In this document: positions 15,402-60,166 of the stretch, piece after piece | Layout of the letters: each line of letters starts with the position of its first letter | Numbering within the stretch: position 1 is the first letter of the stretch | Origin: Ostreococcus lucimarinus | Lineage: Eukaryota | Direction: 5' to 3' (one strand) | Length of the DNA: 64,000 nucleotides | Assembly (NCBI GenBank): GCA_000092065.1 | Contig: CP000591.1 | Program-made: the position numbers and the translations under genes | The notes under the pieces: model-generated | Database searches by the model: none | What the model was told of the DNA's origin: nothing | What the model saw: only the letters and a program-made list of their open reading frames with translations

Positions 15402-15528
15402 GGCGCGACGGCGTCTGCGGGGGACGACGCGCGACGCGGCGGTTCGGTCGCGGTTTCAAACGGTGGCGTCGCGCGGCGCGTGCGGTGCGTGTTTCCGCGG
15501 TGTCTGCGTTTGCTTGAATGAAATCACA

Positions 15529-29241: not shown

Positions 29242-29270
29242 TGCTATCCTTCGTGTCAACAATTACATTC

Positions 29271-32214
29271 CTAATCGCTCGTGTGGACGATGCACTGACG
29301 GGCAGCGTCGTACGAGAAGTGCGAGTTTCTGAAGGCTGAACTGCCGTAAAACGGCGCCAAATCCTCGATGCCGTACGCTCTCGCCTTGCTCTCGAGATCG
29401 CGGCAACGCACTGTCGTCGTCTGACCCGCGGTATCCGCTTGACTGTTCGGCTTGGCGCCGACATTTTCCCAGCGCATCGTTTCCCGAAGTAGTCCGCGAA
29501 GAATTTCGAGGAGCAAAGCGTCGTAGTCGCGATGGAAGTGCGTGTATCGCGCAAACTTCTTCTGCAGGGTCTTTTGCACGGATTGCTTTTGAGTGCCGAT
29601 GAAAGACTGCAGCATGCATCCAATCGCAGCGTCGATGTCATCAGCCGATACTTGCTGGCTAAGTCGCATCGCCGCTCGAGCTTCACTCATTCGGATGATG
29701 GACTCGATGTGACGCACGGCGACGGGCATGCCTTCACGCGTCACAGACTCCTTTCGCAATTCGGCGTAGACTCGTTGAATCTTCGGCAAGTCTTGCTGAT
29801 TTAGCTTTGGGCGACATTCTTTTTTCGCGTACGAAATATACTTGCGCAACAATTTTTGATCAATCGGCTCGATGTCGTCGTCGTCATTTTCCCCAAATGG
29901 ATTCTGCAACGGCGCTTCCGGATCGTCTTCAAATCTCGGATGGCACTTGACGTGGGAGTGTACCACGAACTTAGCGAGCCTTTCATCTAAGACAGGGTCA
30001 ATAACGTCGCGAACGACGCAAAGAATATCGAAGCGGGAAAGGATTGGATCCGTCAGTTCAACGTTGTCGCTGAACGTCTTGGACGAATCGTATCGACCGC
30101 CGATGGGGTTCGCTGCGGCGATGACCGAGCATCTCGCTTGTAAAGAAGTCACAATACCAGCCTTGGAGATAGATATGGATTGCTGCTCCATTGCCTCGTG
30201 AATGGAGACGCGATCTTGCTCGTTCATCTTATCGAATTCGTCAATGAGGCACACACCGCGATCGGCGAGCACGAGGGCGCCGCCTTCCAGCACAAACTCG
30301 CGAGTCACCGGATCTTTGTGCACGGCAGCTGTTAAACCGACCGCAGACGCGCCTTTACCAGTGGTGTACACGGCGCGACCCGCGGTGGCTTGTGTGTACT
30401 TCAAAAACTGTGATTTCGCAACACCGGGATCCCCGAGCAACAACATGTTGATGTCGCCGCGCAATCGCGTCTTGCCCTTGACGAACTTTTCTTGACCGCC
30501 AAACAGCGCAAATGCGATACCCATCTTGATATCTTCGTGCCCGTGAATGGACGGCGCGATAGACTTCATGATGCGTCGAACGATTTTGGGATCACGGCTG
30601 AGCTTTCTGATGTCCTCGCGATCTTCATCCGTGAGATTGCCCGACGAGTACAAATCTCCTTTTCGTTTGACGTAATTCGCCTCGATGTACGTCGTGAATA
30701 CGGGAAATCCCTGCTGACGCGTGTTCAGCGACGCTTCGAAGTTATTTGTGTACACCCCGGTGACTTCAATCTCGTCACCCGGTTTCGCCATGTCAATCAA
30801 GTCGTTCAACACGATAACCTCTTTACTTCGCGGAATGCGGCCAGCCGGAACGCTTCCCGGAGATTCCTGCAACGTCAACTTCTGGTAGTTGCGATACACC
30901 GTCTTTGCGGAGTTAATCTGCCATCTACCTTTTTGATGGCACTCCGGGCAGGCATTCGGGCGCTCCTCTTCTCTGCTACTATTTTGGAAGATTGGACCGA
31001 CGTTGTACGAACACACCATGCACGTGTACGTCACATTTTTCAGTTGCGGAAACACACCCGTGCGTCGCGTCACGACACCGCTGACGCGAATCAATGAGTT
31101 TAAGTGCGATTGGCGAATATCACGAATAGCGTCCTCGACGGGCAAATCCACGATTCGCACGAACACGTCGGGATGAATGTCGCCGTACGACGGGTAAAGC
31201 TTCAACACTTCGGTGAGCGCGACTTCGTCGAATAGATCGAGCATGTCCTTCGGCGCGTCCGCGACCCAAACCGCGATCAGAGACTCACTCTTCGCCAGGT
31301 GCATGTAACTGATTTCCAAACTCTGCAAGTTGTTGTTGCACATCTCGCGAATCTTTTTGTGATAAAGCGACCGCCCGGCTTCGTCGACTTGTCCTTTGCG
31401 CAAAAACCGACTCAAACGCTTGCGAATCTCCACCTTCGTGCGATCCTTCGTGATCCACTCGCGAAGAGGGCAATCGTACACGTCAATGTTCACGTCGAAT
31501 TCCTCGTCATCGTCTTCCATGTCCCCATCTGCGGCGCGATCCGCGGCCCTTCGCCTTCGCGCCTGCCGCAACCATTCGTCCTCGCCCTCCTCGAGCGCCC
31601 GCGGCCGCACCCGACCCGCGCGTCGTCCACCACGATCTTCATAAATATCCCGCTGTTCCATCAACTCTTCCGCGCGCAATCGCGCCTCGAGTTCGGCCTC
31701 CGCATCGTACTCTTCGTCCTCCTGCGCCAGTCCCGCCTCTTCGTACTGGTCCAAGTGCGGCATCACTTGGTAATCCCTACGCCGTACGAAAATAACGCGT
31801 TCCTCACGTTCGTCAGTCGCGCGATCCGACGCTCACTCCATCCCCACCGTCGCGTCTCGCCCCGCGCGCCGCCCTTGGCGCGTCTTCCCCGCTCTCGCGT
31901 CGTCCGCGCGCGAGCGACAGCTCGAAATTCAAATATTCAAACCCGCGTCCCGTCCCCGTTCTCGCCCTCGCGCGTCGCGCGTCGCTCGCGTCGCTCCCGC
32001 ACCGTTCCATGTCGTTCATCAAATCCTCTCCATCGCTCTCGTCGTCGCTCCCGCGCGAGTCCTCGCTCGCGTCGCCGTCGCTCGCCCCGACGTCGTCGCG
32101 CTGATCGTGATGCGGCACGAACGGATCGTCCGCGCCCGCGCGCTCGAACGCGTCCCGCGCGTCGTCGTACGCGTCCGAGGCGTCGTCGCGGTCATCGCTA
32201 TCGCTCGTCGCCAT
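29271..32214 (-). CDS. MCM2: DNA replication licensing factor MCM2. Two exons, 32214-32003 and 31776-29271 (minus strand), about 905 aa.
   Basis: Exon 2 carries the MCM box (Walker A GDPGVAKSQ, IDEFDKM, arginine finger SRFD) and a Zn finger. Exon 1 (ATG 32214, MATSDSDDRDD...GEDLMNDME) is the acidic Ser-rich N-terminus. The splice ...DMER|DYQVMPHLDQYEEAGL reproduces the conserved MCM2 N-terminal motif. Confidence 0.9.
31777..32002 (-). other. Intron 1 of MCM2 (226 nt, phase 2, GTGCGG...CGTAG on the minus strand)
   Basis: Needed to join the two conserved MCM2 segments, which lie in different frames. It contains TTTGAATATTTGAATTTCGAG. Confidence 0.8.
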
Positions 32215-32454
32215 CGCGGCGCGCGCGCGTCGTCGCGTCGCGTCGCGTCGCGCGTCGTCGAGTGTCGCGCGCGCGTTTGAATTCGCATCACAGCTCGACG
32301 CGCGCGCGACGCGCCGGCGACGCGCCTTCGGCGAGCGCGCGCGCGGCGAGCGCGAGCGAGCGACGTCGCGCGCGCGCGCGCCGCGCGAGGACGAAACCGC
32401 GCGCGAGGACGACGAGGCGCGCGATCGCGGATCGCGAATCGCGACGCGCGGGCG

Positions 32455-33147
32455 ATGGAAACGAAACGCGTCGTCTTCGTGTCGCTGAAACCGTCGTCGA
32501 CGGCGAGCGATGATCAACACGCGTCGAGGAACGCGCGACGGAAGCGCGCGCTCGGGATCGAGGAGAGGGCGACGTGGGAGGAGTTTGTGAGCGCGGCGTG
32601 CGCGCGGTTGCAAATCGCGGGCGCGCGGGCGGTGTATCACGCGAGCACGGGCGAACGCGTGCACGGGATAGAGGACGTGCAAGACATTGAAGATTTAATC
32701 GTCGAGGAGGATGAGAGCGCGCGGATGATGACGAGCGGCGCGACGCCGGGGGTGAGCCCGTTGCGAACGCCGAACGGACGCGCGAACGGGGCGACCGCGC
32801 GCGGAACGCCGGGAAGGGATTACGACGGTGATTACGACGACGACGATGGAAAGAGTAAACCGCGAAGGATGTCGGTGCTGTTGTCGAGCCTCGTACCGGG
32901 ACTCGGCAGCGCGGTGGGCGACGGGGCGTTGAGGAAACTGGACAGCGCGTTGGACGCGGCGGAGCGCGGCGACGACGACGGCCGATCGAAGAATCATCGC
33001 GTGCCGACGCGCAAGCCCGTGGGCGCGCGAAAGACGTTGAAGCGAAAGAAGCGCTTGAATAGGCGCGCGGCGGCGTTGTTGCTGATCGTGTTCGTCGGTA
33101 CGTTGGTGTACGTCTTCGGTCGACGCTTTGAAGACGCGCCGTTCTAA
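32455..33147 (+). CDS. Hypothetical tail-anchored protein (N-terminal ubiquitin-like/PB1-like fold?)
   Basis: 230-codon ORF from ATG 32455 with a C-terminal hydrophobic anchor AAALLLIVFVGTLVYVFG. It is divergent from MCM2. Confidence 0.5.
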   Translation: METKRVVFVSLKPSSTASDDQHASRNARRKRALGIEERATWEEFVSAACARLQIAGARAVYHASTGERVHGIEDVQDIEDLIVEEDESARMMTSGATPGVSPLRTPNGRANGATARGTPGRDYDGDYDDDDGKSKPRRMSVLLSSLVPGLGSAVGDGALRKLDSALDAAERGDDDGRSKNHRVPTRKPVGARKTLKRKKRLNRRAAALLLIVFVGTLVYVFGRRFEDAPF

Positions 33148-33245
33148 TAGTCTAGTTGTAAAACAGTCGTCATTGCGTCGCGTTCGCGACTTTGTCTCGG
33201 CGCCTCCGCGCGGTGCGCATCGCGCGAACGCGTAGCGCGCGACGC

Positions 33246-34175
33246 ATGCGCTCGTTCGGCGCGCCGTCGACGTCGGCGGCTCGTCCAACGCACGTCAGGA
33301 CGAAAAGTGCACCCAGACACAAATCCCGCTCGCGCGCCGCGCCGCGCGCCGCGGACGACCCGCAGGCGTGGGAACGGTTTTATCTCACGCACAGTAAAGA
33401 CGGCGCCAAAGGACACGACGTCGGGGCGTTCAAAGATCGGCATTACCTCCGGAAAGCGTTCGGGGAACTGGTGGACGAAGAAGCGCGCGCGGCGCCGGAG
33501 ACTTTTCGCCCGGCGCTTCGCCCGAGCGAGCTCCCAGACGTGGACGAAACGCGCAAAATCGATGTTTTGGAGCTCGGGTGTGGGGTCGGGAACTCGGTGT
33601 TTCCGCTTTTGAGGGCGAATTTAAACATGCGAGTCGTGGCGGTGGACTGTTCGCCGACGGCGATTGCGGCGGTTCGCGCGAACCCGGAGTTCGATGCGCG
33701 ACGACTTCGCACGCACGTCGTCGATGCGAGCGCGCGTCGTTCGATGGAGAGTTGCGTTGACGACGCATCGGTCGACGCCGTGACCGCGGTGTTCTTTCTT
33801 TCCGCGCTCACGGCGAACGGGTTGCGAAACGCCGCTGAGGAAATTCGGCGCGTGCTACGTCCGAATGGTGTACTTTTATTTCGAGATTACGCGAGAGGGG
33901 ACGTTAAGAACGCAGATGCGTCGTCGCAGTTTGTGCCGGGCGAACGCATCGATGAGAATGCGTCTTTGTCGTCGACGTCGAACGAGCAAACGTACCGCCG
34001 TTCCGACGGCACGCTCGCCGTCTTCTTCGACGAAGACGAGTTAAACGACGTGTTTGCATCCGTCGGGTTGGTGGGCGAGTGCGAAATAGTCACGCACTCA
34101 ATCACGAACCGCAAGCTAGGAGTGACGATGGATCGAAAGTTTGTGCAAGGGCGGTTCGTGAGGCTCGCAGGGTGA
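33246..34175 (+). CDS. METTL2/METTL6-like S-adenosylmethionine-dependent methyltransferase
   Basis: WERFY...KDRHYL then SAM motif I VLELGCGVGNSVFPLL, then VLLFRDYARGD. First ATG at 33246. Confidence 0.75.
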   Translation: MRSFGAPSTSAARPTHVRTKSAPRHKSRSRAAPRAADDPQAWERFYLTHSKDGAKGHDVGAFKDRHYLRKAFGELVDEEARAAPETFRPALRPSELPDVDETRKIDVLELGCGVGNSVFPLLRANLNMRVVAVDCSPTAIAAVRANPEFDARRLRTHVVDASARRSMESCVDDASVDAVTAVFFLSALTANGLRNAAEEIRRVLRPNGVLLFRDYARGDVKNADASSQFVPGERIDENASLSSTSNEQTYRRSDGTLAVFFDEDELNDVFASVGLVGECEIVTHSITNRKLGVTMDRKFVQGRFVRLAG

Positions 34176-34222
34176 GTCGTTTGAATATAGATTTGTCATT
34201 TACATCTGTAGCGATCCCTATC

Positions 34223-35764
34223 TCACGCCGCAACCGATTGAGCGTTCGCGTCGCCGAGCACCGCCTCGCTCGCAGTCGGCGGGGCGAGGATCTTCCTGCT
34301 CTCGTGGAAGTATTGATGCGGCGTGTGCACGCCCGCCTCGATTTCGACGCCGTCGTGAATCGCCGCAAACGTCATACCGCACGCGATTTGGTAGTGCATA
34401 TTCGTCGCCTTCTCGACAATCGCGTGCGACTTAGCACCAGAGATTTTCAACGTACCGAGCAACTCGTGCAAACGTGCGCCGTTATCCTTGACGCCAGACG
34501 TGAGCGTCTTGAACGGACAACCGTGCGCGTCCTTCACGCCCGGATCCGCTGCGATGCACTGACCGCACGCGTGCGGGGTGTAGTTGACGCGCTTCCCTTC
34601 CTTACCGTACGCGTGTCTGATACCATACGCGTAATCTTTTTCAAACTTCTCCGCGGAGCATTTCGGGTGCTTTGTGAACTCTGTCTTCCAAAACACGAGC
34701 GCCTGGTCCAGAGGCAAGCCGATGCCCTTCAAATACAGTTGCAGTTGTCGTCGACCGCCGTGCGTCAGGTGATGATCTTTCTTGAGCGCCTTGTAAAGCT
34801 GGCGCATGCACAGCGGGAAAGACTCTTGCGTGGCTTCGATGCCGGCGATCGACATCGTGCCGTCTTCGCCTTGGAAATCGTACCCGCTTCCCGATCGACG
34901 GTTGTGCACAGATTTCAAAAGCGGCGTCAAACGGTGAGCCTCCTTCTTTTCAAACTTGTTGAAGAGCGTGATGGCTTCGGCGACCATCTTGTTCAGCATC
35001 GTCTTAAACCGACCGAACACGAGTTGATCGAGGGTTTCTTTACGAATCCACGCGTTTCCGCCGATCAAGTACGCCCGTCTCGACTTGACGAGCGGGCACA
35101 CCTCTTCGAAACCGACGACGAACCAACGCGACGCCTCGCTCGCCGCTTCCTCGCACATCCTCTGGTACTCCATCGTCCCGAGCTTACCATCTTTACTGAG
35201 ACTTCGACGCATCTGCCTATACTCGTGGTCCGCCATCAAGACGTCCCGCAAATCGTCCCGTCTCTCCCGCACTTCCTTCTCGCTCGCCCGCGCGTAATCG
35301 TTAAACCCATTCGTCCGCATAAACTCCATCTTCGCGTCCAAACTCAGCTCACCGTACCGATACTTGAACAACTCCAACTCGTTCTCCCGAAACCATCGCC
35401 TGTGTTCTTCGCTTCGACAGCTCGCCAACCTCAACAAAAAATGACTCGTCGCGTCTCTCGCCGCGCCCTCCGCGTCAAACGTCCCCCCCGTCGTCCGTCG
35501 CATGTTATATTCCTCCTCCGCGCTCGCGATCGCCCGTTTCAATTCCTCATCCTTCTTCCCACCGCTTCGCGCGTCGTCGATCGCCCGCAAGACGCCGTAC
35601 CGATCCATCGCCGCGCGCTCCAGGTACTCGATGGAGCGTTCGTCATCCGGCGCGGTGTTGTACGCGTCCAACCGCGCCGCGTTTCCGCCGTACTTTCGCT
35701 CGAGCGCGGTCTTGGCGCGCGCTTCCGCTTTCTCTCGATTCGTGCGCAGCGCGCCGAAGACCAT
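34223..35764 (-). CDS. PRIM2: DNA primase large subunit (PriL/PRIM2)
   Basis: PLCMRQLYKALKKDHHLTHGGRRQLQLYLKGIGLPLDQALVFW...HACGQCIAADPGVKDAHGCPFK is the Fe-S cluster domain of the eukaryotic primase large subunit. ATG at 35764. Confidence 0.85.
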   Translation of the reverse strand: MVFGALRTNREKAEARAKTALERKYGGNAARLDAYNTAPDDERSIEYLERAAMDRYGVLRAIDDARSGGKKDEELKRAIASAEEEYNMRRTTGGTFDAEGAARDATSHFLLRLASCRSEEHRRWFRENELELFKYRYGELSLDAKMEFMRTNGFNDYARASEKEVRERRDDLRDVLMADHEYRQMRRSLSKDGKLGTMEYQRMCEEAASEASRWFVVGFEEVCPLVKSRRAYLIGGNAWIRKETLDQLVFGRFKTMLNKMVAEAITLFNKFEKKEAHRLTPLLKSVHNRRSGSGYDFQGEDGTMSIAGIEATQESFPLCMRQLYKALKKDHHLTHGGRRQLQLYLKGIGLPLDQALVFWKTEFTKHPKCSAEKFEKDYAYGIRHAYGKEGKRVNYTPHACGQCIAADPGVKDAHGCPFKTLTSGVKDNGARLHELLGTLKISGAKSHAIVEKATNMHYQIACGMTFAAIHDGVEIEAGVHTPHQYFHESRKILAPPTASEAVLGDANAQSVAA

Positions 35765-35824
35765 GGCGGCGTCGCCGCCGTCGTCGCGCGTCGCCGTGTC
35801 GCGCGATCGTCGAGCTGTCGCCGC

Positions 35825-36039
35825 GTCGCGATTTCAAATTTCGTGGCGTCGGCGCCGCGCGCGGTGCGATTTCGAGGGTCGGCCTCGCGCACCGCGCACT
35901 GTTTACCCATACGCGCGTCGCGATTTCAAATTTCGTGGCGTCGGCGCCGCGCGCGGTGCGATTTCGAGGCGTCGGCGCCGCGCGCGGTGCGATTTCGAGG
36001 GTCGGACCTCGCGCACCGCGCACTGTTTACCCATACGCG
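35825..36039. repeat. Tandem duplication (about 92 bp unit x2, the second copy carrying an internal 31-bp re-duplication) in the primase/36129-gene bidirectional promoter
   Basis: Unit gtcgcgatttcaaatttcgtggcgtcggcgccgcgcgcggtgcgatttcgagggtcgg[c/a]cctcgcgcaccgcgcactgtttacccatacgcg at 35825-35916 and 35917-36039. Each copy carries TTTCAAATTTCG and CACTGTTTACCCATACGCG. Confidence 0.85.
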
Positions 36040-36128
36040 TCAACGCGCGGACGCGGCGCGACGCGCGACGCGCGCGCGCACGTCGCGACGCGCGCGCGAC
36101 CGCGACCGCGACCGCGCGGCGACGCGCC

Positions 36129-37364
36129 ATGTCCGCGGCGCTGGCGGAGACGATCGCGCGCGACGCCGCGGACGGACGCGCGGGCGAGTACGACCTCGCG
36201 GGATTCGGCGAGGCGTGGGTCGACGCGCTCGTCGAGGCGGCGTTCGCGACGCCGACGCGCGCGAAAGGAGGGTTTTACGCGTCGTGCAAGTTCATCGTCG
36301 GCGGCGGGAAGAAGACGCGGGCGAAGTACGACGATGAGGTGGTGAAACACTTGACGGCGGCGCTGCGCGCGAGGGGGTTCGAGGACGACAGAGGCGCGAG
36401 CGCGTGCGAGGCGTGCCAAGGGACGTATAAGTACCAGCACGACACGGATAAGGATTTAAAATACTTGCACGTGTTTCCGAGGGTGACGCACGAGGCGGAG
36501 GGGGGGGAGGCGGCGGCGGCGGCGGGCGGGACGCAGTCGCCCGAGTATCGCGCGTGCGCGTGCGATTTGGAGGAGTTCGAGCGATTGGTGGAGATGTATT
36601 GTCCGAGCTTTTCGCAAAAGCGCGCGCTGTTGCGCAGGATGAAGGTGATGGAGCACGCGCTCGGGGCGCTGGAACAAAAGGTGATCGCGATGGAGAGCTT
36701 GAATGATCGCGAGCAGACGATGTACGACTCGATGGTTGAAGTCGCGGCGAAGATTGAGTTCTTACAACAGGCGCTGGACGACATGATCAAGAAGGGTCGA
36801 TTGACGAAAGGCGAACAAGGAGAAATCGTCGAAGATTTGGAGCTCAAGCTCGAAGATTTGAACCTGATGGTGAACGAGGCGAACGAGGAGGGGAAGCCGA
36901 AGCGCGCGGAGATGCTCGAGAGCAAGAAGGAAATCGTCGTCAAGAAGATTGACTCGGTGCGCGCGAAACCTCCAATCGTGTACACGGTGCCGCACGAACG
37001 CGAACTTTTGGACTTGAAGAAGGAGCTGAACTCGCTGAAAAAAATTGCCGCACAATCGAAAGGAAAGTTGATGAGCGGTGCGGACGCGGCGAAGTGCGCG
37101 AATATTCCCAAGCTCGAAGAGCGCATAGCGAATTTGGAAAACTCCGAGGAAAAAGGATGGTACGAGGACGAATGCCGAGCGCTTCTCTTTCCACCGGTCG
37201 CCGAAAAGAAAGCACCGGCGAAGGCCAAGGCGAGTGGCGCCAAAACCAATTCGGGATGGCTCACCAAGGCGGCAAAGGGCGGATCGCGCGGCGGAGGTGG
37301 ATCCGCGAAAGCTTCGTCGACTCGTGGTCCTTCCAACCCGTTCGCGATGCTCGGCGACGATTAG
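36129..37364 (+). CDS. Hypothetical coiled-coil protein
   Basis: ATG at 36129 (MSAALAETIARDAADG...). Heptad-rich central region (LEQKVIAMESLNDREQTMYDSMVEVAAKIEFLQQALDDMIKKG...). The upstream part of ORF 35502 is antisense to the primase gene and is not coding. Confidence 0.6.
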   Translation: MSAALAETIARDAADGRAGEYDLAGFGEAWVDALVEAAFATPTRAKGGFYASCKFIVGGGKKTRAKYDDEVVKHLTAALRARGFEDDRGASACEACQGTYKYQHDTDKDLKYLHVFPRVTHEAEGGEAAAAAGGTQSPEYRACACDLEEFERLVEMYCPSFSQKRALLRRMKVMEHALGALEQKVIAMESLNDREQTMYDSMVEVAAKIEFLQQALDDMIKKGRLTKGEQGEIVEDLELKLEDLNLMVNEANEEGKPKRAEMLESKKEIVVKKIDSVRAKPPIVYTVPHERELLDLKKELNSLKKIAAQSKGKLMSGADAAKCANIPKLEERIANLENSEEKGWYEDECRALLFPPVAEKKAPAKAKASGAKTNSGWLTKAAKGGSRGGGGSAKASSTRGPSNPFAMLGDD

Positions 37365-37411
37365 CATATAGCGGGTGTTTATATATCACAACATTCATCA
37401 AAATGTGCGTA

Positions 37412-40400
37412 TCAACGTTCACTGTGGTGTCTGGGCGGTCGAAACGGCAAAGGTTCGACGTTCCAAATCTTCGCCGCGTACTCCCGAATCGTGCGATCGG
37501 ATGAAAACATCCACATCGAACACGCAGCTTCGATGCACTTTGCGGTCCACTTCTCTTCGTACTGATACGCCGCATCGGCTTCTGCAATCGCCCCTAGATA
37601 CGACGGAAAATCATGCGCGGTGAGGTAGACGTCTTTCCTCGGATCGATGGCGTCCAAGAGCTGGTTGTACGCTCCGTCGTCCGGCTTGCCGAAGATGCCG
37701 GCGCGAATCATTCCCATGGCGCGGTGAAGACGAGGATCAATTTTTGGTGGGTCGTGCGCCATCTTGCGTCGAATCGCCGCGACTTGATCCGCCTTCGCGC
37801 CAAACGTGAACATGTTATGCTCGCCAATCGCTTGTTCTATCTCGATGTTCGCCCCGTCCATTGTACCCACGATCAATCCGCCGTTCATGACGAACTTCAT
37901 GTTCCCGGTGCCGCTCGCCTCCATACCCGCAGTGGAGATGTGTTGCGAGATATCACTCGCGGGAATGAGAATCTCCGCTAGAGACACGTTGAAGTTGGGA
38001 ACGAACACCACCTTGAGTAAGTCACGACACGCCGCGTCGGAGTTCACGACTTCAGACACGGCGCATACGAGCATGACAAGATTTTTCGCCATGACGTATC
38101 CGGGCGCAGCTTTGCCGGCGATGATGTGCACGCGCGGCACCATTGTTTTGCGCTGTTCGGGCGTAGCCTGCGTGATTTCGGCGTAGCGGTGCACGATTCC
38201 AAGGACATTCAACAACTGGCGCTTGTATTCGTGTATGCGTTTGATTTGCATGTCGAACAAGGCGTTGGGATCGACGCGGATATTCATCGAACGGTACAGC
38301 CATTCCGCAAGCGCTTGCTTGTTCGTTTGCTTGGCCGCGCGCCAACGCTGTCGAAATTGCGGATCTTGCGCCATCGTCTTGATCGGCTCGAGTCGCTTGA
38401 GATCGTTTACCCACCCAGGGCCGACCATGCCCGTGTAAATGCTCGCGAGCGCTGGATTCGCTTGCAACAGCCATCGTCGCGGCGTGACACCATTCGTCAC
38501 GTTGATGAACTTTTCTGGCCACATCAACAAAAAGTCGGGGAATAGCAAAGACTTCAAAAGCTTGGTGTGGATCATCGCCACCCCGTTTACGGTGTGCGAC
38601 CCGATGACGGCTAAGTTGGACATGCGTACCATCTTGGGTGATGACTCTTCGATGATACTCATCGACGACATGCGCGCGGTGTCGTTTGGCCACATCTTTT
38701 GAACCTCAAGCAAAAACCGGTGGTTGATTTCGTAAATGATTTGCATGTGTCGCGGCAAGAGCTCGGTGATCATCGGCACCGGCCACTTCTCCAGTGCCTC
38801 CGGGAGAATGGTGTGGTTGGTGTACGCGAAGACTTTTCTCGTTATTTCCCACGCCTCGTCCCAAGGTAGACGCTCGATGTCGAGGAGCAAACGCATGAGT
38901 TCGGGAATAGCAATCGCCGGGTGCGTGTCGTTGAGCTGTATCGCCACCTTGTCCGGCATATTCTTCATCGTCGTAGACCCACGACCGACGTTCTTCTTGA
39001 AACGTCTATAGATGTCTTGTAAAGTCGCGCTGACGAAGAAGTATTGTTGCTTCAATCGCAAACGCTTACCTTCTTCCGTGGCGTCGTTCGGGTACAGCAC
39101 TGACGTGATACTCTCGCAACGTTCCTTCGCCTCGACCGCGCCGTAGTAATTACCGGCGTTAAACGAGGCGAGATTGAATTCGTGCGATGGCTTGCTACTC
39201 CACAGTCGCATATTGTTGGTGTTGTACGTACCGTAGCCTGGAATCGGGGTATCGTACGCCTGCGCCATGACGACTTCGCCGCCCTCCCACGCGTACAACG
39301 TGTTCCCGTCCGGATCTTGAAACTCTCGAACGTGGCCGAATAAACGAACCGGGTACTGCACGTCTAATCGTTCAACTTCCCACGGGTTCCCATCGGTAAG
39401 CCAATAATCTGGAAACTCCACTTGTTTACCATTCACGATTCTTTGCTCAAACATTCCGTACTTGTAGCGAATGCCGTACCCCCACGCGGGATAATTTTGC
39501 GTCGCGAGCGTGTCCAAGAAACAAGACGCCAAGCGCCCCAGACCCCCGTTCCCGAGCGCTGGCTCTTTTTCCTCTGACATGATATCTTCCAAATCGTATC
39601 CAATCTGCCGCAAAGCCTCGGCGTAGGCGCCTCGTAACCCGAGATTTGAGACGGCATTGCCGAGCGAGCGGCCGATTAAAAATTCGAGCGACAGATAGTA
39701 CACTTTCTTCGCCCCTTTCTTGGCCGAATACTGCTGCGTGTCCGTCCATCGCTCGATCAATCGATCTCGCACCGAGTGCGCGGTGGCTTGATAAAACGAG
39801 CTCGTATCGAGCTTGTACCTCCTTCGCGCGAGCGTATACTCCACGTGCCGCACCAACGATCGCTGCAAACTCGCCACGTCGTTTGGCAAGTACGTGCTCG
39901 ATAGCTTCCACAACAACTCCTTGTGCGCCAAGTGATCGACGCCCATCTCTGCATCGTCGACGTACTGACGCGGGCGATCGAGGATCGTCGTCGCGCTCTC
40001 CAAGAACGATGACTCGGTCACGTCCGCGCGATCGCTTTCCATATCCACGCTAAACGAATCCAGCTGCCCGAGCGAGTCTTTCCTCCGATGCTGCAACAAA
40101 GACGCTCCGCTCGACCGTGGACTGTGCAAGCTCACCGGCGGTCGCCCTCGATGATGATTCTGATGTTGTTGGTACTGATATCCACCCCTGTCGACGCCCA
40201 CGATCACGGGCATACCCGTCTCGTCGTCCCCTCGCGCGTACGATCCCGCGCCGCTCCTCGCCATCCGACCGCCGTACGCGCTCGACGTCGACGAGTCGTT
40301 CTCCTGCGCCAGATTCGCCCGCAAGCTCTGTTCGAGCCACGCGTCCACGCGCGTGTTTTGCCCGCTCGCCACGGACGAGCCCGGCTTCCGCCTCGCGCTC

Positions 40401-40792
40401 GTCGTCGTCGTCGTCGTCGCGTCTGGCTGTCGCGCCGCCAACCGCAGGCGCGTCATCAGCGTCAGCTCTTCGCTCGACCCCACGTCGCGCGTTCGCCCTC
40501 CCGCGAACGCCCCGCGCGCGAACGACGTATCCGCGGCGTCGTGCGCCGCGCCTTCGTCGTCGCCCGTCGCGTCGCGCCCCGTCGTCGTCGTCCCGTCGCG
40601 ATGCCGATGCGTCGGCGTCAACCTCTCCGGCGCGCTCCTCGCGAACGCCGCGTCCCAGAACGTCTTCGCGTCGCGCGGGCGCGCGTCGTCGTCGTCGAAC
40701 GCGACGTCATCGCGCGGCATCGCGTCGCGCGCGCGCGCGCCGTCGTCGCGCGCAGATCTCTGAAGAATTTGGATGACGGTAACCGTCGCCAT
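37412..40792 (-). CDS. Alpha-1,4-glucan (starch/glycogen) phosphorylase with an N-terminal extension of about 280 aa
   Basis: About 830 aa of GT35 phosphorylase homology (LSLEFLIGR, NGGLGRLA, pyridoxal-phosphate region MKFVMNGGLIVGTMDGANIEI, C-terminal TIREYA..IW). ATG at 40792. Confidence 0.9.
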   Translation of the reverse strand: MATVTVIQILQRSARDDGARARDAMPRDDVAFDDDDARPRDAKTFWDAAFARSAPERLTPTHRHRDGTTTTGRDATGDDEGAAHDAADTSFARGAFAGGRTRDVGSSEELTLMTRLRLAARQPDATTTTTTSARRKPGSSVASGQNTRVDAWLEQSLRANLAQENDSSTSSAYGGRMARSGAGSYARGDDETGMPVIVGVDRGGYQYQQHQNHHRGRPPVSLHSPRSSGASLLQHRRKDSLGQLDSFSVDMESDRADVTESSFLESATTILDRPRQYVDDAEMGVDHLAHKELLWKLSSTYLPNDVASLQRSLVRHVEYTLARRRYKLDTSSFYQATAHSVRDRLIERWTDTQQYSAKKGAKKVYYLSLEFLIGRSLGNAVSNLGLRGAYAEALRQIGYDLEDIMSEEKEPALGNGGLGRLASCFLDTLATQNYPAWGYGIRYKYGMFEQRIVNGKQVEFPDYWLTDGNPWEVERLDVQYPVRLFGHVREFQDPDGNTLYAWEGGEVVMAQAYDTPIPGYGTYNTNNMRLWSSKPSHEFNLASFNAGNYYGAVEAKERCESITSVLYPNDATEEGKRLRLKQQYFFVSATLQDIYRRFKKNVGRGSTTMKNMPDKVAIQLNDTHPAIAIPELMRLLLDIERLPWDEAWEITRKVFAYTNHTILPEALEKWPVPMITELLPRHMQIIYEINHRFLLEVQKMWPNDTARMSSMSIIEESSPKMVRMSNLAVIGSHTVNGVAMIHTKLLKSLLFPDFLLMWPEKFINVTNGVTPRRWLLQANPALASIYTGMVGPGWVNDLKRLEPIKTMAQDPQFRQRWRAAKQTNKQALAEWLYRSMNIRVDPNALFDMQIKRIHEYKRQLLNVLGIVHRYAEITQATPEQRKTMVPRVHIIAGKAAPGYVMAKNLVMLVCAVSEVVNSDAACRDLLKVVFVPNFNVSLAEILIPASDISQHISTAGMEASGTGNMKFVMNGGLIVGTMDGANIEIEQAIGEHNMFTFGAKADQVAAIRRKMAHDPPKIDPRLHRAMGMIRAGIFGKPDDGAYNQLLDAIDPRKDVYLTAHDFPSYLGAIAEADAAYQYEEKWTAKCIEAACSMWMFSSDRTIREYAAKIWNVEPLPFRPPRHHSER

Positions 40793-52440: not shown

Positions 52441-52505
52441 GCTCGACGAGCGTTCGCATTGTATAAGCGCTTTGTTGTAAAACCAAACAGGCGGCAGTAA
52501 AATCA

Positions 52506-53606: not shown

Positions 53607-53726
53607 GAGCCGTCTCTTTCGTCGTCTCGAACAACCTCGTCCTCACGAACGCACTTGTTCTTTGGTAGTATTCCAACCCGCTAAAATCCCGCTAATTATT
53701 CGTGCATGTAATGACGCTCACTAAAA

Positions 53727-58777: not shown

Positions 58778-58799
58778 TTTGAATTTCGGATTCGAATCC
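58778..58799. promoter_or_regulatory. TTTGAATTTCG element abutting a perfect 12-bp palindrome GGATTCGAATCC, about 290 bp upstream of the chromatin-protein gene
   Basis: tcgtttgTTTGAATTTCGGATTCGAATCCgagcg. The same 11-mer occurs in MCM2 intron 1 and, as TTTCAAATTTCG, twice in the primase promoter. Confidence 0.4.
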
Positions 58800-59078
58800 G
58801 AGCGACGCGAGCGCGCGCTCTCGGCGAGCGGGAGCGGCGGGCGAGCGAGAGCGAATGGCGAGGAGTGCGTGGACGCGGCGAGGCGATGCGAGGCGCGCGA
58901 GAGCGAGGACGAGGGCGCGGGGGGGGAAGGACGGGGCGCGCGCGACGACGCGCGTCGCGCGCGACGCGCGCGAAGAAAGACGACGACGACGCGACGACGA
59001 CGACGCGACGACGACGACGATCGCGGGACTGACGAGGGCGTTGATGTGCGCGCGCGCGCAGGCGTCGGGAGCGGCGCG

Positions 59079-60023
59079 ATGCCGGCTTCGGCGGAAGATT
59101 CCATCGGGTGGTACCTGAGCTTGTACTGGCCGGCGATGAATAAGGAGTTCAAGGGCGTGGTGCAAAAGTACGATCACGATTCCAAGCATCACACGGTGAA
59201 GTGGGATAACGCGCCGAAAGGGAGCGATGGCGTGACCGAGGTTGATTTGACCGAGGGCGAGTTGACGTGGTTGAAGGCGCCGGAGAAGCCCGTGAAGAAG
59301 GCCGCGAAGGGCAAGCCGGCGGCGGCGAAAGCGAAACCCAAAGCGTACAAGGAGTACGATGCCTTGGAGACCATGGATGATTTGGAAGCGCGATTCACGG
59401 GCAAAACGACCAAGGCGGTGGCGTTTCAAGTGTTGAAGAACAGCGGCGTAAACGGGATGACGCTTCAAGAAATAGTCGACGAGTCGCAAAAGCTTGGGCT
59501 TCGGGACTGGACGCAGTGCAAACAGCCAAAGACGACCATCAACGTGTGCGTGAGTCAAGATTCGGCGTTTGTGAAGATTTCTCCCGGACGCGTGGGTTTG
59601 CGCATCAACGGCGCGCAAACGAGAGACGCTTCGCAAGAACCCAAGCACGTGAAGGCGTCGGGCGCTTCGAAAAAGCGTGGGCGTCCGCCGAAGACGGGCG
59701 AGGCCAAGCCGAAAAAAGTGCAACGTCAAGAACCGCAACACTGGGAGCGCAAGCCTCCGATTGATTTGTCGATTGAGGTGTACACGAGCAACAACACGCA
59801 CGTGACCAACGCGCCAATCTCAGTTGCGTACAACGTTACCATTAAGGCTTTGAAAAAGGCCATCTCGAATAACACCAAGGGCATGCTCAAGCCGCACTAT
59901 CAGCAACTTTACCACGATAACCGAAACATCGGTATGGATGAGGATGCGTTTTTGGTGCACGCGGTTCGCCCGCACAAATTTGAGCGCACGCTCGATTTGA
60001 AGCTCGTCATCAGCGATCAGTAG
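59079..60023 (+). CDS. Chromatin-associated protein: Tudor-like domain + HARE-HTH domain + AT-hook + C-terminal ubiquitin-like region
   Basis: IGWYLSLYWPAMNKEFKGVVQKYDHDSKHHTVKWDNAPKG...VTEVDL (Tudor-like). AVAFQVLKNSGVNGMTLQEIVDESQKLGLRDWTQCKQPKTTINVCVSQDSAFVKISPGRVGLR (HARE-HTH). KKRGRPPKTG (AT-hook). ATG at 59079; the upstream part of ORF 58671 is not coding-like. Confidence 0.65.
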   Translation: MPASAEDSIGWYLSLYWPAMNKEFKGVVQKYDHDSKHHTVKWDNAPKGSDGVTEVDLTEGELTWLKAPEKPVKKAAKGKPAAAKAKPKAYKEYDALETMDDLEARFTGKTTKAVAFQVLKNSGVNGMTLQEIVDESQKLGLRDWTQCKQPKTTINVCVSQDSAFVKISPGRVGLRINGAQTRDASQEPKHVKASGASKKRGRPPKTGEAKPKKVQRQEPQHWERKPPIDLSIEVYTSNNTHVTNAPISVAYNVTIKALKKAISNNTKGMLKPHYQQLYHDNRNIGMDEDAFLVHAVRPHKFERTLDLKLVISDQ

Positions 60024-60166
60024 ACACTACAACAGTGACAGCGGTAACAGGCACATCATAGCCCGCGCGACAACACCAGGCGGAAATCTAATCATCGATC
60101 ATGTGTCGCGCGCGTTGTAAATCGAATATTCCATAAACGACTTCGTCTCGAGTTGAATTACAACGT

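Follow-up and report, generated by a model that had tools for sequence, protein, structure and literature searches.

The hexamer TTTGAA, read on either strand, is a real, conserved cis-element resembling the CHR (the homology region of cell cycle genes) at the genes for MCM2, the large subunit of DNA primase and a HARE-HTH protein in the green alga Ostreococcus lucimarinus and its relatives. The element was studied in a 64-kb stretch of contig CP000591.1 (the window; 62% GC, gene-dense, ~33 genes), in which Pfam searches of the predicted proteins confirmed all three genes. Outside the window, TTTGAA or its complement TTCAAA is present in 14 of 14 target segments and in 4 of 63 other non-coding segments (Fisher p = 3.6e-12), and the box is very probably a true gene-control site, of the type that sets the timing of cell-division genes in animals and plants. 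Comparison with the relatives shows that it has been maintained by purifying selection at all three genes over at least two genus-level lineages that are Mamiellophyceae-like. An earlier note on this DNA had proposed that MCM2 (promoter and intron 1), primase and the HARE-HTH gene share a non-random element, and this proposal is borne out by conservation in every relative examined.

The Mamiellophyceae (Ostreococcus, Micromonas and relatives) are models of a minimal, light-gated eukaryotic cell cycle. For the MCM and primase genes of plants and animals, the canonical cis-element is the E2F site, TTTSSCGC. A box of 6-7 bp conserved at MCM2 and primase provides a mutable handle in an organism in which luciferase reporters are already in use, and it is usable for sequence-based prediction of the S-phase regulon in uncultured picoalgae. 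If it is true that the boxes replace E2F sites, the RB-E2F-DREAM network would have been rewired in a streamlined genome with a minimal eukaryotic cell cycle. Monnier (2010) described ~50 co-expressed S-phase genes with no motif reported (PMC2850359). A literature search, which did not cover the phylogenetic footprinting of Ostreococcus by Piganeau (2009), found no published S-phase cis-element for Ostreococcus or Micromonas.

Conservation of the TTTGAA box

MCM2 orthologues were taken from metagenome assemblies, and about ten related picoalgae, all uncultured, contributed syntenic loci. Those of the window's genus (L002-4, L005-7, L008 and L009) have 83-85% amino-acid identity, and those of a sister group, here called group B (L010-13, L014, L015-17 and L109), have ~68%; the HARE-HTH orthologues (L018, L020 and L022) have 61-71%. 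Lysyl-tRNA synthetase (LysRS) is 69% identical to that of Micromonas commoda, the best of the named relatives, in the window and 74-75% identical in group B, and both lineages are therefore placed at the level of the Mamiellophyceae. Non-coding segments were delimited from the called genes, and the MCM2 5' regions, the primase-large-subunit promoters and the HARE-HTH promoters were designated as targets.

With the window included, TTTGAA/TTCAAA occurs in 17 of 17 target segments and in 7 of 90 others, and one of these seven (24657) actually lies within a coding exon of a 2-oxoglutarate (2OG) oxygenase. Without the window there are 22 boxes in 9.2 kb of target DNA versus 4 in 12.5 kb of other DNA (2.4/kb versus 0.3/kb), and among non-target segments of at least 150 bp from other species the word is found in 3 of 32. 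Seven control hexamers of the same composition showed no enrichment in the target segments. When all 6-mers were ranked without bias, TTTGAA came fourth, as the top non-repetitive word and the sole word in every target segment; the words above it are of the GACGAC type (acidic coding sequence or microsatellites) or belong to a local CCGACC repeat. The box belongs to a known kind of cis-element and is CHR-like. All 28 of the 28 target boxes read TTTGAA/TTCAAA and keep the invariant T1, T2, A5 and A6 of TTYRAA, with further TTCGAA and TTTAAA at the same places, and the match to the CHR reported earlier is correct. The site is likewise conserved in orthologous promoters (14 of 14 regions outside the window) in DNA that is otherwise unalignable.

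The conserved unit is the hexamer TTTGAA, usually TTTGAA(A/T), and not the 11-mer TTTGAATTTCG from which the earlier note had started. The exact 11-mer occurs twice in the window against 0.08 expected, a count reached in 0 of 100 shuffles, and when one mismatch is allowed there is no excess in the window (2 versus 1.74 expected). As a functional unit the 11-mer was rejected; its TTTCG extension is absent from all orthologues. The TTTCAAATTTCG of primase is a different word from TTTGAATTTCG, with only the TTTSAA core in common. The flanks of the box follow TTTGAA-A/T-T/A, with positions +6 and +7 being A/T-rich against a background of 62-65% GC. The extended form TTTGAAA makes up 13 of 22 boxes, which gives a near-palindrome, TTTSAAA. 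Boxes occur in either orientation relative to the gene and are often paired 8-45 bp apart. Some are found in the first intron, and the others at 40-200 nt upstream of the start codon. These results demonstrate sequence specificity, gene specificity within the available DNA, conservation and positional constraint. The definition of the element accordingly changes to a TTTGAA(W) box that is often in pairs and has partner words, and for which a CHR-like reading is the best available.

Boxes at MCM2

The MCM2 gene and its sites in the window are as follows.

29271-31776, minus strand: MCM2 exon 2
31777-32002, minus strand: MCM2 intron 1 (226 nt; GTGCGG donor, ACTGAC branch-like site near the 3' end, TAG acceptor)
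32003-32214, minus strand: MCM2 exon 1, ATG at 32214-32212
31936-31941, minus strand (MCM2 sense): TTTGAA box A in intron 1
31928-31933, minus strand: TTTGAA box B in intron 1, the first six bases of the 11-mer TTTGAATTTCG at 31923-31933
31912-31922, minus strand: companion word AGCTGTCGCTC in intron 1, 5 nt downstream of box B
32276-32281, plus strand (TTCAAA in MCM2 sense): TTTGAA box in the promoter, 62-67 nt upstream of the ATG, inside GCGTTTGAATTCGC
32290-32297, minus strand: companion word CGAGCTGT in the promoter, 8 nt from the box

On the coding strand intron 1 contains the sequence gggTTTGAAtaTTTGAAtttcgag, and its box region reads gggTTTGAAtaTTTGAAtttcgAGCTGTCGCTCgcg, which is a composite of the form TTTGAA-N2-TTTGAA-N5-AGCTGTCGCTC. 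The sequences quoted in the earlier note are all present, both here and at the primase and HARE-HTH genes; the promoter sequence GCGTTTGAATTCGC spans 32273-32286, where 32275-32286 had been given. Intron boxes are also found in L002, L008 and L009. In L002, L005, L010, L014 and L109 there are boxes in the promoter, at 40-133 nt upstream of the ATG. The L009 intron carries TTTTCAAAagtgtCGAGCTGTCccgacgTTTGAA, and the L010 promoter carries TTCAAAA-N16-TTTGAAA at 44-67 nt before the ATG. The position of intron 1 is identical in both lineages in every orthologue except L109. Between species the introns have only 38-59% identity after alignment with MAFFT and are in effect unalignable; the boxes are nevertheless retained, and they are therefore not merely unchanged inheritance.

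Boxes at the primase promoter

The primase gene is transcribed from a bidirectional promoter that it shares with a gene for an unknown 411-aa protein. The features of this region, and of the corresponding promoters in group B, are as follows.

34223-35764, minus strand: DNA primase large subunit gene, ATG at 35764
35832-35838, plus strand (TTTGAAA in primase sense): proximal TTTCAAA box, ~70 nt upstream of the ATG at 35764
35924-35930, plus strand: second TTTCAAA box, a product of tandem duplication and no independent site
35810-35821, plus strand: companion word TCGAGCTGTCGC, adjoining the proximal box; the same 12-mer is in the MCM2 intron
35810-36039, plus strand: tandem duplication in the bidirectional promoter, copy starts 92 and 31 nt apart
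L010 4990-5090, L014 5240-5340, L017 2340-2420 and L109 1600-1680: primase architecture of group B

The element had been reported to occur twice at primase, and two copies of TTTCAAATTTCG do exist, starting at 35832 and 35924, but both lie within a ~92-bp tandem duplication and they therefore count as one independent event; two independent sites were rejected. Within the duplication, a 33-nt block at 35883-35915 recurs identically at 36007-36039, and there is a 31-nt sub-repeat, ATTTCGAGGCGTCGGCGCCGCGCGCGGTGCG. The Logan assembly of the window species (L001) breaks exactly at this repeat.

The primase promoter of L002 carries TTTGAAattttTTTGAAaaAGCTGTCGCTC, which is the same composite as in the MCM2 intron of the window. 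The L010 promoter has TTTGAA-N22-TTTGAAA, and the promoters of L014, L017 and L109 have TTTGAA-N15-TT(T)CAAAA. In four other species the boxes are 144-196 nt upstream of the ATG. Primase keeps the box despite a different upstream neighbour: in group B a C2H2 zinc-finger gene takes the place that unk417 has in the window's genus. The promoters of group B follow a common architecture, GGCCCA(C)-N15-25-TTTGAA-N15-22-(T)TTSAAAATC-N6-12-GTGTGCC(C/T)AC. TTTGAA is also seen where the methyltransferase and primase genes converge, in the short 3' spacer that separates them (34180-34185 in the window, 1233 in L009).

Boxes at the HARE-HTH gene and Nup96

Four features describe the start of the HARE-HTH gene.

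58778-58783, plus strand: TTTGAA box in the promoter, 72-77 nt upstream of the inferred ATG at 58855
58791-58796, plus strand: TTCGAA, a second TTYRAA box in the promoter, at the centre of the palindrome GGATTCGAATCC
58855-58864, plus strand: inferred 10-nt first coding exon ATGGCGAGGA, ATG at 58855
58865-59060, plus strand: inferred 196-nt 5' intron (GTGCGT donor, ACTGAC branch-like site, CAG acceptor)

The gene appears to start with the 10-nt coding exon followed by the 196-nt intron; the predicted spliced frame runs into the open reading frame (ORF) ending at 60023, and the L022 orthologue has the same ATG-GTG arrangement. With the inferred ATG at 58855, the boxes would be 59-77 nt upstream of it. 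As the earlier note had it, TTTGAATTTCG (58778-58788) is fused to the palindrome GGATTCGAATCC (58788-58799). One TTTGAA is found shortly upstream of the start of the orthologue in each of L018, L020 and L022. The Tudor domain that had been assigned to the protein could not be confirmed, as only a weak SH3-like match and an AT-hook match were obtained. The palindrome holds GATTCG on both strands, a word that resembles the plant LUX site GATWCG. GATTCG or (AATCG)n repeats are found in MCM2 promoters too (32420-32444 in the window, 3500-3560 in L005), and the enrichment was not significant (23 versus 27, p = 0.09).

Nup96 may be a further target. A single TTTGAAA lies at 15455-15461 on the minus strand, 55 nt upstream of the start codon in a promoter of 127 bp. 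This distance is within the range of the MCM2 boxes.

Partner words and the composite site

The word CGAGCTGT occurs four times in the window, always in the MCM2-primase interval; three of these occurrences have a box within 25 bp. The fourth, at 35417-35424 on the minus strand, is inside the primase coding sequence ~340 nt downstream of the ATG, and may be a partner word copied into the gene or simply coincidental. In the window's genus 6 of 14 box clusters have an AGCTGT no more than 30 bp away, compared with a background of 2.6%, as determined in a post hoc test. Group B is without AGCTGT and has GGCCCA / G(T/G)GCCCAC instead (5 versus 0 in other segments). The partner words are thus lineage-specific: the window's genus has AGCTGT(C), and group B has GGCCCA/GTGCCCAC. 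In L010 the MCM2 boxes, too, come after GTGGGCAC-like words.

The composite was searched for as TTTGAA-N1-6-TTTGAA-N1-6-AGCTGTCGC in 241 million metagenome records. There were 53 matches, of which eight are algal (four from the MCM2 intron of the window species and four from the primase promoter of the L002 species). The remaining 45 are unrelated and have no other Mamiellophyceae-like context, many being a single medium-GC sequence that recurs in gut assemblies and the like, and the scan of these records gave no additional target genes. The match in L081, inspected closely, was rejected as an algal target and is bacterial radical-SAM coding sequence. A looser 19-base pilot search of viral contigs gave 32 matches in low- to medium-GC contigs, none like the algal sites. 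Since the composite is found only at the two known sites, it is a rare site-specific module and no dispersed repeat. The many near-identical copies at unrelated loci that mark a dispersed repeat, a miniature inverted-repeat transposable element (MITE) or an introner were not found.

Other elements and neighbouring sequences

The strict E2F form TTTSSCGC was not found in the non-coding parts of the target regions or their orthologues, the single match (L010) being in MCM2 coding sequence, and the lax form WTTSSCSS was not found in the MCM2 and primase regions of the window. The element had also been likened to the plant mitosis-specific activator (MSA) element, which is bound by MYB3R proteins. 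This comparison was mistaken because the MSA core is AACGG, unlike TTYGAA, and YCYAACGGY is matched neither in the target regions nor in the window as a whole. No TCP motifs occur in the target regions of the window. No cell cycle-dependent element (CDE) or E2F-like site was found adjoining the boxes, and by function the targets are G1/S-type replication genes and not the late G2/M genes of the animal CHR.

Rfam covariance models gave no matches in the window at the gathering score, whether to small nucleolar RNAs or to other intronic RNA families. Sub-threshold matches to microRNA precursors at 32192-32334 (best 28.8 bits versus a gathering score of 142) surround the MCM2 promoter box on CG-rich palindromic DNA and are judged to be compositional artefacts. 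The only inverted repeats around the boxes are CG-rich low-complexity palindromes, which are uninformative.

The gene order primase, methyltransferase, small unknown gene and MCM2 is kept in all MCM2 orthologue loci. This syntenic block, in which the methyltransferase is S-adenosylmethionine (SAM)-dependent, covers 29271-40792 in the window and is seen in L002, L005, L008-L010, L014, L015 and L109, which represent two genus-level lineages. The small unknown gene encodes ~170-230 aa with no Pfam match, and is always divergent from MCM2 with a common promoter. Short 3' intergenic spacers of low GC (34-48%) often contain TGTAA/TTACA (29242-29270, 33148-33191, 34176-34222, 52441-52505, 53607-53726 and 60024-60166). 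TTGTAA-type words are enriched in the non-target segments, mostly terminators (17 versus 0), and TGTAA/TTACA in these spacers agrees with UGUAA, the polyadenylation signal of green algae.

Recognition of the box

The CHR bound by LIN54 most commonly reads TTTGAA, and biochemical work defined its consensus as TTYRAA, in which TT and AA are obligatory; LIN54 recognizes the site from the minor groove, pseudo-symmetrically, with a pair of tyrosines that Arabidopsis TSO1 and soybean CPP1 conserve (PMC4974476). In Chlamydomonas, the LIN54-like CXC domain of CHT7 binds in vitro to a 27-mer of the CDKA1 promoter with TTTGAATTTC, and the same domain was reported to be dispensable for CHT7 activities in vivo (bioRxiv 10.1101/2023.10.23.563394). 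In Arabidopsis, CXC-protein motifs are enriched near the transcription start sites of TCX5 targets (bioRxiv 10.1101/2025.11.02.686075).

We favour, with a probability of roughly 0.55, a reading in which the box is a promoter-proximal site for a sequence-specific transcription factor, with TTTGAA as the core and a CXC protein as the candidate reader, that would restrict expression to part of the cell cycle. The recognized form would be TTTGAA(A/T)(T/A), often as the near-palindrome TTTSAAA, which would work in either orientation and commonly in pairs 8-45 bp apart. The reader would be a tandem-CXC protein from the family of LIN54/TSO1/TCX/CHT7, which in MuvB/DREAM-type complexes is the subunit that binds DNA, and it would read the box in the minor groove. 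The box would act together with a partner site that differs by lineage: AGCTGT(C) for the window's genus and, for the sister group, the TCP site-II-like GGCCCA/GTGCCCAC. Box and partner together would confine transcription of the target genes to a proliferative or S-phase window. We infer a CXC (MuvB/DREAM-like) site from the commonest CHR hexamer, the fit to the LIN54 consensus and the in vitro binding of the CHT7 CXC domain.

Several points weigh against this reading. The targets are G1/S genes with no E2F or CDE site, whereas the animal CHR is at G2/M genes, usually with a CDE. L005 is without the MCM2 intron box, L009 is without the promoter box and L008 has only TTTAAA in the promoter, and the placement of the MCM2 box is therefore fluid. 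The box at Nup96 means that the target set is not purely one of replication genes and hints at a broader set. The association with AGCTGT was tested post hoc, and the target genes followed belong to three families only (MCM2, primase large subunit and HARE-HTH). No CXC-type ORF was seen in the fetched loci, where none was expected in so little sequence. A bolder version of the CXC reading, in which paired TTTGAA boxes of the CHR type, in place of E2F sites, would wire the G1/S replication programme (MCM2, primase and more), and a MuvB/LIN54-like CXC factor would act with a lineage-specific partner, also from the first intron, is doubtful.

The leading alternative, less probable than the CXC reading but a serious candidate, is that the conserved site serves a non-CXC factor and is not necessarily linked to the cell cycle. 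This could be a dimer on TTTSAAA or a reader of the composite of the box and AGCTGT, the ACAGCT/CAGCTG part of which resembles E-box or TALE sites. The frequency of TTTGAAA, which is TTTSAAA, the A/T-rich positions +6 and +7, the AGCTGT near six of the box clusters and the box at Nup96, which is no replication gene, would all fit such a factor. However, to our knowledge no other plant or algal transcription factor consensus fits the TTTGAA boxes equally well. The hexamer is exactly the commonest CHR, and the variants TTCGAA and TTTAAA are those permitted by TTYRAA (PMC4974476).

A second alternative is unlikely, namely that the box is a general core-promoter or nucleosome-excluding A/T element, used as A/T words are scarce in a GC-rich genome and having no gene-set specificity. 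The boxes are near gene starts and A/T-flanked, and the density of TTYGAA in the non-coding DNA of the window is ~2x that in coding DNA. Such an element should not be confined to the targets, yet the word is in only 7 of the 90 other segments, one of them coding, and in 3 of the 32 longer segments of other species, while A/T-rich control hexamers of the same composition are not enriched.

It is quite improbable that the box is a signal at the RNA level, in a 5' untranslated region (UTR) or an intron, for splicing, stability or translation. MCM2 intron 1 does contain several boxes, and 5' UTRs may include some of the rest, but the occurrence of boxes in both orientations argues for recognition of DNA, they shift between promoter and intron among species, and no structured RNA family is matched. 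Least probable of all is chance recurrence of a short A/T word or a dispersed repeat or MITE fragment near the target genes: many 11-mers recur by chance in 64 kb, the 11-mer with one mismatch is not over-represented and the primase copies are a duplication, but the 14/14 versus 4/63 outside the window and the flat control hexamers effectively refute chance, and the confinement of the composite to two sites, with no Rfam matches, speaks against a repeat.

Comparison with known systems

TCP site II (TGGGCY / GGNCCCAC) is found at plant proliferation genes such as PCNA, and the GGCCCA and G(T/G)GCCCAC words that flank the primase and MCM2 boxes of group B are like it. They differ from the TTTGAA element in being a partner site and not the element itself, and they are absent from the window and its genus. 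The E2F site TTTSSCGC shares with the algal box the class of replication genes, the promoter-proximal position and the TTT(C/G) start; the algal box is without the CGC core.

The animal CHR is found near the transcription start site of TATA-less promoters, at late G2/M genes, and frequently follows a CDE at a distance of 4 nt. The algal box has an identical core, is promoter-proximal at proliferation genes, is phylogenetically conserved and, as a pseudo-symmetric site, fits both orientations. It differs in being at G1/S replication genes of a prasinophyte green alga without CDE or E2F, in being often paired and in some cases in the first intron, in its partner words AGCTGT and GGCCCA/GTGCCCAC, and in having a candidate binder only. 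Among the CXC sites of plants and green algae (CPP/TSO1/TCX and CHT7), the plant TCX targets have E2F and MSA motifs, none of which were found at the algal boxes. What the algal box has in common with these sites is the green lineage, in which the CXC domain of CHT7 is specific for TTTGAA in vitro.

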